From Escherichia coli (GTDB taxonomy: Bacteria > Pseudomonadota > Gammaproteobacteria > Enterobacterales > Enterobacteriaceae), in NCBI RefSeq assembly GCF_024298765.1, contig NZ_CP101210.1: DNA of 64,000 nucleotides; one strand, 5' to 3'. Positions 1 to 63,454 of the stretch are shown in pieces (within the stretch, counting starts at the first letter, position 1; each line of letters begins with the position of its first letter). The notes beneath the pieces were generated by a model. It was not told where the DNA came from. It did no database searches and saw only the letters and a list, made by a program, of their open reading frames with translations. The position numbers and the translations under genes were made by a program.

Positions 1-45
1 TAGCGCGCATTCTATGGAGACATGCGAGTTCATGCAACTAAAAAA
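1..45 (-). promoter_or_regulatory. Probable promoter of the thrU-tyrU-glyT-thrT-tufB operon; the tRNA genes lie outside the window
   Basis: Reverse complement reads TTGCAT (-35, 32-37) and TAGAAT (-10, 9-14) followed by GCGCGCTA, matching the thrU upstream region as I recall it. Transcription would run leftwards out of the window. Confidence 0.4.
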
Positions 46-355
46 TTGCATAATTTGTTTTATTGGTCACATTTTATGCGACGCGATGAAGAAACAGCCG
101 AATGGAGGGCAGATTAGCACACTTTTTCAACATCATTGTGCTCAACAATGCGCTCCTGCTAAACCATAATTCTTTTTATCAGATGGAATATCTGTCACAT
201 TGCTTTTCAACGATAGCTTCCTGGGAGAGATTTTTTCTTATTATTCCTCCCCATCTGGTGTTACCCTCCTGCCCATTAACCCATTCAACAGAACTGTGGC
301 GCGCCATGGCAAATATCGCTTTGCCGATAGAGCTATGACCGCCAGAAACATGCTT

Positions 356-1306
356 ATGAGTATAAAAGAGCAAACGTTAATGACGCCTTACCTACAGTTT
401 GACCGCAACCAGTGGGCAGCTCTGCGTGATTCCGTACCTATGACGTTATCGGAAGATGAGATCGCCCGTCTCAAAGGTATTAATGAAGATCTCTCGTTAG
501 AAGAAGTTGCCGAGATCTATTTACCTCTATCACGTTTGCTGAACTTCTATATAAGCTCGAATCTGCGCCGTCAGGCAGTTCTGGAACAGTTTCTTGGTAC
601 CAACGGGCAACGCATTCCTTACATTATCAGTATTGCTGGTAGTGTCGCGGTGGGGAAAAGTACAACCGCCCGTGTATTGCAGGCGCTATTAAGCCGTTGG
701 CCGGAACATCGTCGTGTTGAACTGATCACTACAGATGGCTTCCTTCACCCTAATCAGGTTCTGAAAGAACGTGGTCTGATGAAGAAGAAAGGCTTCCCGG
801 AATCGTATGATATGCATCGCTTGGTGAAGTTTGTTTCCGATCTCAAATCCGGCGTGCCAAACGTTACAGCACCTGTTTACTCGCATCTTATTTATGATGT
901 GATCCCGGATGGAGATAAAACGGTTGTTCAGCCTGATATTTTAATTCTTGAAGGGTTAAATGTCTTACAGAGCGGGATGGATTATCCACACGATCCACAT
1001 CATGTATTTGTTTCTGATTTTGTCGATTTTTCGATATATGTTGATGCACCGGAAGACTTACTTCAGACGTGGTATATCAACCGTTTCCTGAAATTCCGCG
1101 AAGGGGCTTTTACAGACCCGGATTCCTATTTTCATAACTACGCGAAATTAACTAAAGAAGAAGCGATTAATACTGCCATGACGTTGTGGAAAGAGATCAA
1201 CTGGCTGAACTTAAAGCAAAATATTCTACCTACTCGCGAGCGCGCCAGTTTAATCCTAACGAAAAGTGCTAATCATGCGGTAGAAGAGGTCAGACTACGC
1301 AAATAA
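356..1306 (+). CDS. coaA: Pantothenate kinase (316 aa)
   Basis: ORF 200..1306 contains [20 protein letters not shown]...; P-loop GSVAVGKST. Start moved to the ATG that gives the 316-aa K-12-length protein. Confidence 0.93.
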
Positions 1307-1308
1307 TT

Positions 1309-1343
1309 TTCAGGGGAGCTAATGCTCCCCTATCTTATTTTTC
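1309..1343. terminator. Bidirectional intrinsic terminator between convergent coaA and birA
   Basis: Perfect inverted repeat GGGGAGC-TAAT-GCTCCCC (1313-1330) followed by TATCTTATTTTT; also T/A-rich on the opposite strand. Confidence 0.6.
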
Positions 1344-2300
1344 CGCACTACGCAGGGATATTTCACCGCCCATCCAGGGTTTTATTATTCCATCCTGCTC
1401 AAGCAATAAAGCGCCCTGTTTGTCTATTCCACGTGAAATGCCAAATATTTCTTTATCACCAATGATAAGTTTCACTGGGCGATTAATAAAATTATCCAGC
1501 TTTTCCCAGCGCGAAAGATAAGGTGCCAATCCTTCTTGCTCGAAGAGTTCCAGCGCCGCGCGTAATTCACGTATGAGCATGGCCGCCAACGTATTACGAT
1601 CGAGATTGATTCCCGCTTCCTGCAGCGTGATCCACCCTTGATTAACGACACTCTCTTCAACACGACGCATTGCCATGTTGATCCCGGCTCCAATGACTAT
1701 TTGCGCCGCATCGCCGGTTTTGCCAGTTAGCTCCACAAGAATGCCTGCCAGCTTGCGATCCTGCAGATAGAGGTCATTAGGCCATTTAACACGAACTTTA
1801 TCTGCACCCAGCTTGCGTAATACTTCCGCCATCACGATACCGATAACCAGACTTAAACCAATCGCCGCCGCCGGGCCTTGTTCCAGACGCCAGAACATCG
1901 ACAAATATAAGTTTGCGCCAAAAGGCGAAAACCATTTCCGCCCCCGGCGACCACGGCCAGCCTGCTGGTATTCTGCAACACAGGCATCGCCCGATTTAAG
2001 CTCTCCGATACGATCAAGAAGGTACTGATTCGTGGAGTCAATAACGGGCAGCACAGTTACACTACCGCCATCCAGCTGACCCAATATCTGTTCAGCATTA
2101 AGTAACTGGATAGGCTCAGGCAGGCTGTATCCTTTACCCGGAACGGTAAAGACATCAACGCCCCAGTCACGCAGTGTCTGAATGTGTTTATTAATAGCCG
2201 CCCGGCTCATTCCTAACGTTTCACCCAACTGCTCACCAGAGTGAAATTCGCCATTCGCTAACAGCGCGATTAATTTCAGCGGAACGGTATTATCCTTCAT
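1335..2300 (-). CDS. birA: Biotin--[acetyl-CoA-carboxylase] ligase and bio operon repressor (321 aa)
   Basis: ORF of K-12 length; N-terminal HTH ([27 protein letters not shown]...) and GRGRRGRKW biotin-binding loop. Confidence 0.95.
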
Positions 2301-3325
2301 GAAATCGTCTCCACTGCGCTAACTTCACCTGATGCACCAATAAAGCGAACTTCAGGCTCAAGCCAGACATTAAATTTTTCACCCACTTTTTGTCTTACAT
2401 GATGTGCCAGTTGCACCACATCTTCGCTTTTTGCATTGTCTTCATTAATGAGGACTAACGCCTGTTGACGGTGCACCGCAGCACCACCCATTTGCATCCC
2501 TTTTAGCTGGCACTGATCGATAAGCCAACCTGCTGCCAGTTTTACTGAACCATCCGCCTGGGGATAATTTGGTGCTGTTGGAAATTGTGCCAGTAATGCT
2601 TTAGCCGTTTCGGCAGATACAACAGGGTTTTTGAAGAAACTACCGGCATTGCCATTCACTTTTGGATCAGGGAGTTTGGTGGTGCGCATATGACACACCG
2701 CATTAAATACTTGCTGTGGCGTTACGGTTGTAGGATCCAGACGAGTTAAGTCACCATACGTTAGTACAGGTTGCCACTCTTTTGGCAGACGCAGACCTAC
2801 GGCTACAATGGCGAAGCGGTCCTGGTATTCATGTTTAAAAATACTGTCGCGATAGCCAAAACGGCACTCTTTGGCAGTTAAGCGCACTAGCTTGCCTGTC
2901 GCCAGTTCAACACAGTCAACATAAGCGCAAACTCGCTGTAATTCTACGCCATAAGCACCAATATTCTGGATAGGTGATGAGCCGACACAACCAGGAATTA
3001 ATGCCAGATTTTCCAGACCAGGCATACCTTCCTGCAAAGTGTATTTTACCAGGCGATGCCAGTTTTCTCCGGCTCCTACATGTAAATACCACGCATCAGG
3101 TTCATCATGAATTTCGATACCTTTAATCCGGTTGATGATCACCGTGCCGCGATAGTCTTCCAGAAAAAGTACATTACTTCCTTCACCCAGAATAAGAACG
3201 GGTTGTCCTTCTGCGGTTGCATGCTGCCAGGCATTGAGTAGTTGTTGTTCGTCTTCGGCACATACAATGTGCTGAGCATTATGATCAATGCCAAATGTGT
3301 TCCAGGGTTTTAAGGAGTGGTTCAT
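2297..3325 (-). CDS. murB: UDP-N-acetylenolpyruvoylglucosamine reductase (342 aa)
   Basis: ORF of expected length ([21 protein letters not shown]...); 4-nt ATGA overlap with birA start. Confidence 0.95.
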
Positions 3326-3414
3326 AGCTGCTTTCCTGATGCAAAAACGAGGCTAGTTTACCGTATCTGCGGGGGGATGGCTTGTAGATATGATGACAGG
3401 AAGAGTTTGTAGAA

Positions 3415-3450
3415 ACGCAAAAAGGCCCAGTCTTCCGACCGAGCCTTCTG
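3415..3450 (-). terminator. rrnB T1-like terminator hairpin downstream of 5S rRNA
   Basis: Minus-strand transcript reads GGCUCGGUC-GGAA-GACUGGGCC followed by UUUUUG, a near copy of the canonical rrnB T1 stem-loop. Confidence 0.6.
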
Positions 3451-3459
3451 CTTAATTTG

Positions 3460-3579
3460 ATGCCTGGCAGTTCCCTACTCTCGCATGGGGAGACCCCACA
3501 CTACCATCAGCGCTACGGCGTTTCACTTCTGAGTTCGGCATGGGGTCAGGTGGGACCACCGCGCTAAGGCCGCCAGGCA
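3460..3579 (-). rRNA. rrfB: 5S ribosomal RNA
   Basis: 120-nt match to E. coli 5S rRNA (reverse complement ATGCCTGGCAGTTCCCTACTCTCGCATGGGGAGACCCCACACTACCATC...GCCGCCAGGCA), with a couple of single-base variants relative to my remembered sequence. Confidence 0.95.
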
Positions 3580-3677
3580 AATTCTGTTTTATCAACACGT
3601 CTCGTTATGACCTGTCGATTTAATCTGTATCAGGCTGAAAATCTTCTCTCTATCCGCCAAAACACCTTCGGCGTTGT

Positions 3678-6584
<2,907 letters not shown>

Positions 6585-6767
6585 CACAACCCGAAGATGT
6601 TTCACTTCAGAGTTGCGAAAATTTGAGAGACTCACGAACAACTTTCGTTGTTCAGTGTTTCAATTTTCAGCTTGATCCAGATTTTTAAAGAGCAAATATC
6701 TCAAACATCACCCGAAGATGAGTTTTGAGATATTAAGGCAGGTGACTTTCACTCACAAACCAGCAAG

Positions 6768-6843
6768 TGGCGTCCCCTAGGGGATTCGAACCCCTGTTAC
6801 CGCCGTGAAAGGGCGGTGTCCTGGGCCTCTAGACGAAGGGGAC
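6768..6843 (-). tRNA. gltT: tRNA-Glu (anticodon UUC) in the 16S-23S spacer
   Basis: Reverse complement is GTCCCCTTCGTCTAGAGGCCCAGGACACCGCCCTTTCACGGCGGTAACAGGGGTTCGAATCCCCTAGGGGACGCCA, 76 nt with encoded CCA. Confidence 0.95.
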
Positions 6844-6928
6844 GTATCAGTCTGCTTCGCAAGACGCCTTGCTTTTCACTTTCTATCAGACAATCTGTGT
6901 GAGCACTGCAAAGAACGCTTCTTTAAGG

Positions 6929-8470
<1,542 letters not shown>

Positions 8471-11490: not shown

Positions 11491-11731
11491 TGTAAAGCAT
11501 CCACAATAGAAGAAGGATGCCGCAGGTTTCATCAATATTACGCGATGATGAGAACCAGATGCGACGTTAGCCGGCAGGTCTTCGGGCTTGGAGGGGTATC
11601 TAAGATACTAAGAGATGATGACTTCCCACCGGATGGCAGTGTCCGCATAACGCAATCATCGCACCTTTCCTTACCGCTGCGCGTCAGCTCCAGATTCGCA
11701 CTGGATTCCCTATTAACTCACAGGACCGGCA
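11491..11731 (-). ncRNA. Adenosylcobalamin riboswitch (btuB 5' leader)
   Basis: Minus-strand sequence GCCGGTCCTGTGAGTTAATAGGGAATCCAGTGCGAATCTGGAGCTGACGCGCAGCGGTAAGGAAAGGTGCGATGATTGCGTTATGCGGACACTGCCATCCGGTGGGAAGTCATC... matches the well-studied btuB leader. The 5' end is approximate. Confidence 0.85.
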
Positions 11732-11858
11732 AGTGGATGCTACAGGTTGTAACAAGTTACTGTCCAGACGTAGCTCACAAATAGGAATTCATCAAGATCT
11801 GGACATCTGATGAGCAATCCCTACAATCGCCGCGTACTTTAATTTTTCAGGATACATC

Positions 11859-16735: not shown

Positions 16736-16848
16736 GAAACGGAGCGGCACCTCTTTTAACCCTTGAAGTCACTGCCCGTTTCGAGAGTTTCTCAACTCGA
16801 ATAACTAAAGCCAACGTGAACTTTTGCGGATCTCCAGGATCCGCTTTT
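16736..16848 (+). ncRNA. oxyS: OxyS small regulatory RNA
   Basis: GAAACGGAGCGGCACCTCTTTTAACCCTTGAAGTCACTGCCCGTTTCGAGAGTTTCTCAACTCGAATAACTAAAGCCAACGTGAACTTTTGCGGATCTCCAGGATCCGCTTTTTTTT matches OxyS, including the terminal hairpin GCGGATC-TCCAG-GATCCGC and U-run. Confidence 0.9.
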
Positions 16849-62831: not shown

Positions 62832-62888
62832 AACCCTCAAAATCCCCCCCATCTATAATTGCATTATGCCCCGTACTTTTGTACGGGG
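62828..62888 (+). promoter_or_regulatory. hslVU sigma-32 heat-shock promoter with 5' leader hairpin
   Basis: TTGAAA (62828-62833), 13-nt spacer, CCCCATCT (62847-62854); then perfect hairpin CCCCGTAC-TTTT-GTACGGGG at 62869-62888. Confidence 0.7.
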
Positions 62889-62923
62889 TTTGTACTCTGT
62901 ATTCGTAACCAAGGGGTCAGCTC

Positions 62924-63454
62924 GTGACAACTATAGTAAGCGTACGCCGTAACGGCCATGTGGTCATCGCTGGTGATGGTCAGGCCACGTTGGGCAATAC
63001 CGTAATGAAAGGCAACGTGAAAAAGGTCCGCCGTCTGTACAACGACAAAGTCATCGCGGGCTTTGCGGGCGGTACTGCGGATGCTTTTACGCTGTTCGAA
63101 CTGTTTGAACGTAAACTGGAAATGCATCAGGGCCATCTGGTCAAAGCCGCCGTTGAGCTGGCAAAAGACTGGCGTACCGATCGCATGCTGCGCAAACTTG
63201 AAGCACTGCTGGCAGTCGCGGATGAAACCGCTTCGCTTATCATCACCGGTAACGGTGACGTGGTGCAGCCAGAAAACGATCTTATTGCTATCGGCTCCGG
63301 CGGCCCTTACGCCCAGGCTGCGGCGCGCGCGCTGTTAGAAAACACTGAACTTAGCGCCCGTGAAATTGCTGAAAAGGCGTTGGATATTGCAGGCGACATT
63401 TGCATCTATACCAACCATTTCCACACCATCGAAGAATTAAGCTACAAAGCGTAA
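62924..63454 (+). CDS. hslV: ATP-dependent protease subunit HslV (176 aa)
   Basis: [39 protein letters not shown]..., N-terminal Thr nucleophile after Met. Confidence 0.96.

Follow-up and report, generated by a model that had tools for sequence, protein, structure and literature searches.

The 3' end of rrnB in the Escherichia coli chromosome analysed here is very probably a frequent natural allele of this locus, one that lacks the sRNA-bearing cassette of K-12, carries a single Rho-independent terminator and probably represents the ancestral state. The locus is well known and the allele ordinary and widespread, with nothing about it that is new in kind. The window, meaning the whole 64,000-nucleotide stretch of DNA that was analysed, covers the E. 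coli rrnB-murB-birA region, with murB and the rrn operon both encoded on the minus strand, and contains the following features.

2297-3325, minus strand: murB (UDP-N-acetylenolpyruvoylglucosamine reductase), 342 aa, from the list of open reading frames, with its ATG at 3325
3326-3412, minus strand: murB upstream region, collinear with K-12 without gaps and with 2 substitutions between the terminator and the ATG
3330-3348, minus strand: conserved block GTTTTTGCATCAGGAAAGC, from 54 Enterobacteriaceae loci
3334-3337, minus strand: Shine-Dalgarno sequence AGGA, inside block GTTTTTGCATCAGGAAAGC
3352-3367, minus strand: conserved block GATACGGTAAACTAGC, from the 54 loci
3379-3385, minus strand: conserved block ACAAGCC, from the 54 loci
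3413-3423, minus strand: U-tract, UUUUU (3419-3423) and then GCGUUU, by direct reading
3424-3445, minus strand: core of the terminator hairpin, GGCUCGGUC-GGAA-GACUGGGCC, from sequence and fold, made up of the 5' arm GGCUCGGUC (3437-3445), the GNRA loop GGAA (3433-3436) and the 3' arm GACUGGGCC (3424-3432)
3455-3472, minus strand: the 18-nt sequence AACTGCCAGGCATCAAAT (3' end of 5S plus 5 nt), in single copy, with one match in the window
3460-3579, minus strand: 5S rRNA gene (rrfB), 120 nt, by direct reading of the sequence
3678-8470, minus strand: rest of the rrnB operon upstream of 5S (Rfam and ARAGORN)
3678-6583, minus strand: 23S rRNA (Rfam)
6768-6843, minus strand: tRNA-Glu (ARAGORN)
6929-8470, minus strand: 16S rRNA (Rfam)

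The 5S gene is matched by the Rfam family RF00001 at 3462-3577 (minus strand) with 90.5 bits. Several complete E. coli chromosomes share 99.8% identity with the 401 nt around the spacer and have them annotated as rrf and murB, and this region is matched at 99% identity or more in 74 complete E. coli genomes; the murB annotation is likewise shared with the 99.8%-identical genomes. The gene order in the closest genome, MDR_56, is identical and continues with birA and coaA. Elsewhere in the window, Rfam places the OxyS sRNA at 16736-16845 (plus strand), a cobalamin riboswitch at 11556-11745 (minus strand), an L31 ribosomal-protein leader at 58205-58257 (minus strand), a ClpQY promoter element at 62869-62926 (plus strand) and StyR-44 at 6591-6690 (minus strand), in the rrn spacer upstream of 23S. 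None of the five is unexpected in the part of the chromosome concerned.

The spacer between 5S and murB, which the initial annotation put at about 135 bp, measures 134 nt (3326-3459, minus strand). It shares neither length nor full sequence with K-12 rrnB: the K-12 MG1655 spacer, between the rrfB end at 4171756 and the murB start at 4172057, is 300 nt long, and a pairwise alignment of the two places one clean 166-nt gap in the window, with near identity otherwise. The 166 nt missing from the window correspond to K-12 T1, the rrB sRNA gene and a second, 18-nt repeat of the 5S 3' end. The K-12 spacer thus reads from the 5S 3' end through T1 (AAAACGAAAGGCUCAGUCGAAAGACUGGGCCUUUCGUUUU), about 120 nt, the 18-nt repeat (AACUGCCAGGCAUCAAAU), T2 (UUAAGCAGAAGGCCAUCCUGACGGAUGGCCUUUUUGCG) and 98 nt to murB. 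In the window, the order is the 5S 3' end, UUAAGCAGAAGG-CUCGGUC-GGAA-GACUGGG-CCUUUUUGCG, 98 nt as in K-12, and murB. K-12 rrnB holds two exact copies of AACTGCCAGGCATCAAAT, 168 nt apart, which flank the T1-rrB cassette; a second copy of this 18-mer is absent from the 64-kb window, which has only one match, and so is the body of rrB when up to 3 mismatches are allowed.

The segment absent from the window is a described sRNA gene, a point that the earlier reading of this DNA had missed. In K-12, the sequences between T1 and T2 of rrnA, rrnB and rrnD are tRNA-linked-repeat sRNA genes, named rrA, rrB and rrF (Stenum et al. 2021, PMC8144298). The hallmark of this class is a 3' end whose last 18-19 nt exactly repeat the 3' end of the gene upstream, only three of the seven K-12 rrn operons carry dual terminators, and rrA, rrB and rrF are transcribed by read-through of T1 (PMC8144298). 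Binding of the RrA/B/F RNAs to Hfq and CsrA has been shown in vitro, and deletion of their genes leads to modest phenotypes only (PMC8144298). The window shares the locus with these sRNAs, namely the rrnB 3' end bounded by the 18-nt sequence from the end of 5S, but it does not have a body of about 150 nt closed by 18-19 nt copied from the 3' end of the gene upstream; the sRNA gene is missing, and the spacer is an empty site for the element. As T1, rrB and the second repeat are all missing, the RrB sRNA cannot come from rrnB of this strain.

What the spacer does contain is one hairpin, present as quoted in the initial annotation at 3424-3445 (minus strand) and followed by UUUUU. It starts 15 nt beyond the mature 3' end of 5S, and its stem has 9 pairs, 6 of them G-C and two of them wobbles (G.U/U.G). 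A G+C-rich stem-loop, a U-run directly 3' of the stem and a structure conserved over sequence are what is expected of a Rho-independent terminator, and we regard the hairpin as a predicted intrinsic terminator, from which we infer termination in vivo. The initial annotation could find no second terminator of the T2 type, and none emerged here: a T2-type stem-loop is absent from the spacer, and in a fold of 3320-3480 the terminator stem is the sole stable element, with no second hairpin or structured RNA in the remaining spacer. The fold of the whole spacer is no better than that of shuffled sequences (z = -1.4), and Rfam, run on 3300-3620 at E <= 1, returned 5S only and no known sRNA or cis-element family in the spacer. 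A promoter/terminator consensus scan of 3100-3700 on both strands flagged no terminator either. The scanner most likely missed it through extension of the stem into the A/U pairs, by which the T-run is consumed. We therefore did not take this silence as evidence against a terminator, the hairpin and U-run being plain at 3413-3445 (minus strand).

The initial annotation had called this hairpin a variant of rrnB T1, which is correct for the stem-loop and incorrect for the site. The stem-loop matches that of K-12 rrnB T1 at 20 of 22 bases and that of K-12 rrnA T1 (GGCUCAGUCGGAAGACUGGGCC) at 21 of 22, the latter differing by a single A-to-G transition. Compared with the rrnB T1 stem-loop, GGCUCAGUC-GAAA-GACUGGGCC, there are two A-to-G changes, one in the stem (giving a G.U pair) and one in the loop (which is still GNRA), so that the structure is kept. 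The position, the flanks and the distance to murB, however, are those of T2. From the hairpin to the murB ATG the alignment with K-12 is free of gaps, and the 5' leader UUAAGCAGAAGG and the 3' trailer CCUUUUUGCGUUUCUACAAACUCUUCCUGUC of K-12 rrnB T2 are identical in the window, where the 3' flank begins with CCUUUUUGCGUUUCUACAAAC. As judged from these comparisons, the terminator of the window is T2 by position and flanks, with a stem-loop of the CAGUCGRAAGACUG family that K-12 uses for T1.

Neither of the K-12 rrnB terminators is thus a full counterpart. K-12 T2 is likewise the last terminator of its operon and has similar stability, but its stem-loop, GGCCAUCC-UGAC-GGAUGGCC (8 bp), is unrelated to GGCUCGGUC-GGAA-GACUGGGCC (9 bp), and it follows the 18-nt repeat of the 5S end that closes rrB, whereas the terminator of the window follows the genuine 5S 3' end. 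The T1 hairpins of K-12 rrnB and rrnA share with the window the stem-loop family, the GNRA tetraloop and the place as first hairpin after 5S. Unlike the window hairpin, though, K-12 T1 has a perfectly symmetrical A/U extension (AAAACGAAAGG...CCUUUCGUUUU; -32.6 kcal/mol), lacks one of the G.U wobbles, and precedes rrB and a second terminator. The flanks of rrnB T1, AAAUAAAACGAAAGG and CCUUUCGUUUUAUCUG, followed by rrB and T2, do not occur at the hairpin of the window, whose flanks are of the T2 type. A further comparison is offered by rrn ends with a single terminator, such as K-12 rrnG and rrnB of O157:H7 Sakai and ST131, in which 5S is directly followed by one intrinsic terminator, as in the window. 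The rrnB hairpins of Sakai and ST131 are 1 and 2 transitions away from that of the window, respectively, and these restore Watson-Crick pairs; the window has two wobble pairs, Sakai one and ST131 none, with point differences only.

The hairpin is as stable as the terminators with which it can be compared. The energy of its core is -15.1 kcal/mol, against -15.8 for K-12 T1 and -14.7 for K-12 T2. With the A/U extension (3417-3451) it reaches -23.1 kcal/mol (z = -5.3, none of 200 shuffles being as good), against -22.7 kcal/mol for the extended fold of K-12 T2. The structure is also maintained over evolutionary time. For this, the murB-proximal terminator was aligned from 40 distinct sequences of E. 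coli and other Enterobacteriaceae, and compensatory changes were found at 8 of the 13 pairs of this alignment, where 98.1% of the cells are paired, compared with 83.6% in shuffles. Cells with changes on both sides numbered 65 where 14.6 were expected, a value that none of 500 shuffles attained, and the covariation signal collapsed when the 3' partners were slid. The T-run is invariant across the 40 sequences, and the sequence of the stem is highly variable yet paired (GGCCAUCC, GCCCAUCC, CCUCAUGC, CCCUGUAC, CCCCGACC and others). Within E. coli, the alleles of the T1-family hairpin differ by transitions only, all of which swap Watson-Crick and wobble pairs, with 5' arms of GGCCCAGUC in ST131, GGCCCGGUC in Sakai and GGCUCGGUC in the window.

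The short spacer is common among the 5426 complete E. coli genomes that we sampled. To recognize the long form, we used a K-12 probe that runs from the end of rrB through T2 into the murB upstream region; with at least 80% of the probe covered, the long form was found next to murB in 2521 of the 5426 genomes (46%). In the remaining ~54%, among them O157:H7 Sakai and ST131, the rrfB-murB spacer is short and the probe is matched only from the 5S end onward, and the suggestion that the short spacer is specific to a lineage does not hold at such a frequency. Two classes of short spacer can be distinguished, with counts that were read from identity bands rather than from alignments of each genome. 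In the first, a T2-type hairpin directly follows 5S (~684 records at 99% identity or more, for example WCHEC115106); in the second, which has a T1-family hairpin, there are ~2170 records (~40%) at 80-95% identity, for example O157:H7 Sakai, ST131 and BEN2908. A sample of 40 rows taken at even steps agrees with these figures (19 long, 4 short with T2 and 15 short with a T1-family hairpin). The exact 65-nt allele of the window occurs in ~84 genomes.

The cassette itself varies well beyond rrnB. The K-12 T1-T2 segment, which stands for the rrA/rrB/rrF family, ranges from 0 to 10 copies per genome, with 1451 of the 5426 genomes (27%) having none at all. In strain SB0258h1 it is found at rrnE, where K-12 is without it, and it is missing at rrnA of SC480 and of MDR_56, where K-12 has it. 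Within-species variation of rrA, rrB and rrF is not discussed in the paper that described them (PMC8144298).

For the direction of change we turned to related species, in which a degenerate pattern for the N-terminus of murB, run over species-representative genomes, yielded 55 Enterobacteriaceae loci whose upstream regions were then read. The usual arrangement among these is 5S, a single terminator and murB. The loci with this arrangement include E. whittamii, Escherichia sp. E1V33 and 'E. coli' E69. A T1-family hairpin within T2-type flanks, the combination seen in the window, is present in E. whittamii (GGCUCAGUC-GAAA-GACUGAGCC, with flanks as in the window), in Kosakonia oryzendophytica, whose hairpin is of the ST131 type, and in a Pluralibacter MAG. 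E. albertii (GGCCCGGUC-GAAA-GACCGGGCC) and Phytobacter massiliensis have a T1-family hairpin and T2-type flanks as well, on contigs that start inside the terminator leader, so that the 5S junction is not visible in either. The long cassette form is sporadic, occurring in Kluyvera genomosp. 3, Klebsiella indica, Enterobacter sp. CC120223-11 and Salmonella diarizonae. A further junction of the enterobacterial 5S-terminator-murB kind, almost the same as in Phytobacter ursingii, was seen on QFQM01000754.1, a 1.2-kb contig labelled as a Flavobacterium psychrophilum MAG, which is evidently a mis-binned contig.

Since the single terminator is found in the Escherichia relatives and in most other genera, the short T1-family form is probably the old, ancestral arrangement rather than a lineage-specific deletion, and the long form of K-12 is probably derived; this direction is drawn by outgroup parsimony. 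The distribution within the species fits it: of the strains sampled, the long-form K-12, SE11, W and O111:H8 belong to phylogroups A/B1, and the short-form Sakai, ST131 and BEN2908 to the early-branching phylogroups E/B2. The cassette is nevertheless old and scattered over other genera (Kluyvera, Klebsiella indica, Salmonella diarizonae), and repeated gain and loss of it is therefore likely.

Taken together, these observations suggest a simple model of the locus. Transcription of the operon would pass through 5S and stop at the one Rho-independent terminator, with its 9-bp G+C-rich stem, GGAA loop and five U residues. murB, with its own conserved upstream region, begins 98 nt past the hairpin (93 nt past the U-run), a distance identical to that in K-12. 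The long form of K-12 would have been gained through an insertion or conversion that placed the cassette between copies of the 18-nt repeat.

The opposite direction is a lineage-specific deletion, as raised in the initial annotation. Here, a K-12-like T1-rrB-T2 ancestor would have lost the cassette by recombination between the two 18-nt direct repeats, and the hairpin would have diverged afterwards. The repeats that bracket the cassette in K-12, exact and 168 nt apart, are an obvious substrate for such an event, and the product expected from it exists, since genomes such as WCHEC115106 have 5S directly followed by a hairpin 100% identical to K-12 T2. A single deletion between the repeats would leave T2, however, and the hairpin of the window belongs to a different stem family. 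E. whittamii and Kosakonia also have the T1-family hairpin with the same flanks at this position (as does E. albertii, whose 5S junction is not visible), and short forms make up ~54% of the E. coli genomes, Sakai and ST131 included. With a single terminator in the relatives and a hairpin that is not T2, loss of the cassette is the less likely direction, and we consider this explanation improbable for the window.

A second proposal of the initial annotation, gene conversion among rrn operons, would make the terminator a chimera, in which a short tract brought the T1 hairpin of another operon into a T2-type terminator at rrnB. The hairpin is indeed one transition from K-12 rrnA T1 while both of its flanks are of the T2 type, and conversion between rrn 3' ends clearly occurs. 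In MDR_56, the 3' ends of rrnA and rrnE (L071:20384-20486 and L072:13572-13697) are identical in the terminator and the sequence downstream of it: both are single terminators without the T1-rrB cassette, with the same hairpin, GGCUAUCC-GUCA-GGAUGGCC, followed by REP-like sequence, as would fit a conversion event between rrnA and rrnE. The T1-rrB cassette at rrnE of SB0258h1, which K-12 does not have there, points the same way. The tract required here, though, would have to be no longer than ~22 nt, with shared flanks of only 4-5 nt. rrnA and rrnE of MDR_56, the two operons checked, offer no T1 donor, their hairpin being a different, T2-like one, and conversion from another operon is thus unsupported at these two. 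As the combination of hairpin and flanks is found in other species, an origin within E. coli is not needed, and we think it quite improbable that the terminator arose in this way. In MDR_56, it was also seen that yjaA is absent between rrnE and yjaB.

An assembly artefact, in which the 18-nt/5S repeat collapsed and the cassette was lost, might be imagined for a cassette that lies between repeats and adjoins a multi-copy rRNA operon, where assemblies often fail, but it has hardly any probability at all, as independent complete genomes show the junction by the thousand, 74 at 99% identity or more over 401 nt, and a collapse cannot yield a hairpin that differs, like this one, from both hairpins of K-12.

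The most probable reading therefore remains that of a frequent natural allele without the cassette, and the 5S gene next to it shows allelic variation of its own. The initial annotation had remarked on base differences from K-12 rrfB, and there are in fact three, A12C, G13U and C71U, as established by comparison with 14 other 5S copies. C12 and U13 are common alleles, found in rrfB of Sakai, ST131, MDR_56 and others, at positions where the K-12 copies themselves vary. C71U, at position 71 of 5S (3509 of the window, minus strand), turns the C71-G105 pair of the Rfam alignment into a U.G wobble. It was found in rrfB of none of the 5426 complete E. coli genomes, where the best match to the 401-nt region is 99.8% identical and the lone mismatch to MDR_56 is the C71U base. 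The exact 5S allele of the window was seen in one other record of 5463, in a different operon (rrnE of strain 05-3629), by which we ruled out that it is a common allele. C71U could be a conservative private variant or a base-call error.

On the other side of the terminator, the blocks within 3326-3390 (minus strand) are strongly conserved across 54 Enterobacteriaceae loci. Presumably, 3326-3412 (minus strand) contains a putative murB promoter together with the 5' UTR, a location that we infer from this conservation. A consensus scan of 3100-3700 detected no sigma-70 consensus or recognisable -35/-10 pair upstream of murB, and a search of the literature for a mapped murB promoter found no mapping. 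For the purpose of annotation, the region is fully explained as one intrinsic terminator between the 5S gene and the conserved sequence upstream of murB.

The rrnB T1-T2 tandem terminator has been used in countless vectors. Our findings indicate that this textbook arrangement is the K-12-type allele and not the norm of the species. More than half of complete E. coli genomes have no rrB at rrnB, about a quarter of all complete genomes lack its whole family, and this absence bears on any conserved function assigned to RrA/B/F. With this in mind, one may speculate, albeit as an unlikely extension of the present data, that rrn ends carry the T1-rrB cassette as an accessory module of variable copy number, and that the allele could alter the titration of CsrA or the growth-rate coupling of murB and birA; the basis of this speculation is the pattern of presence and absence of the cassette, not a phenotype. 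According to it, strains of this kind would be without the RrA/B/F sRNAs, which are coupled to growth rate and bind Hfq and CsrA, or would have them at a reduced dose, and a single moderate terminator would insulate murB-birA from the most heavily transcribed class of operons.
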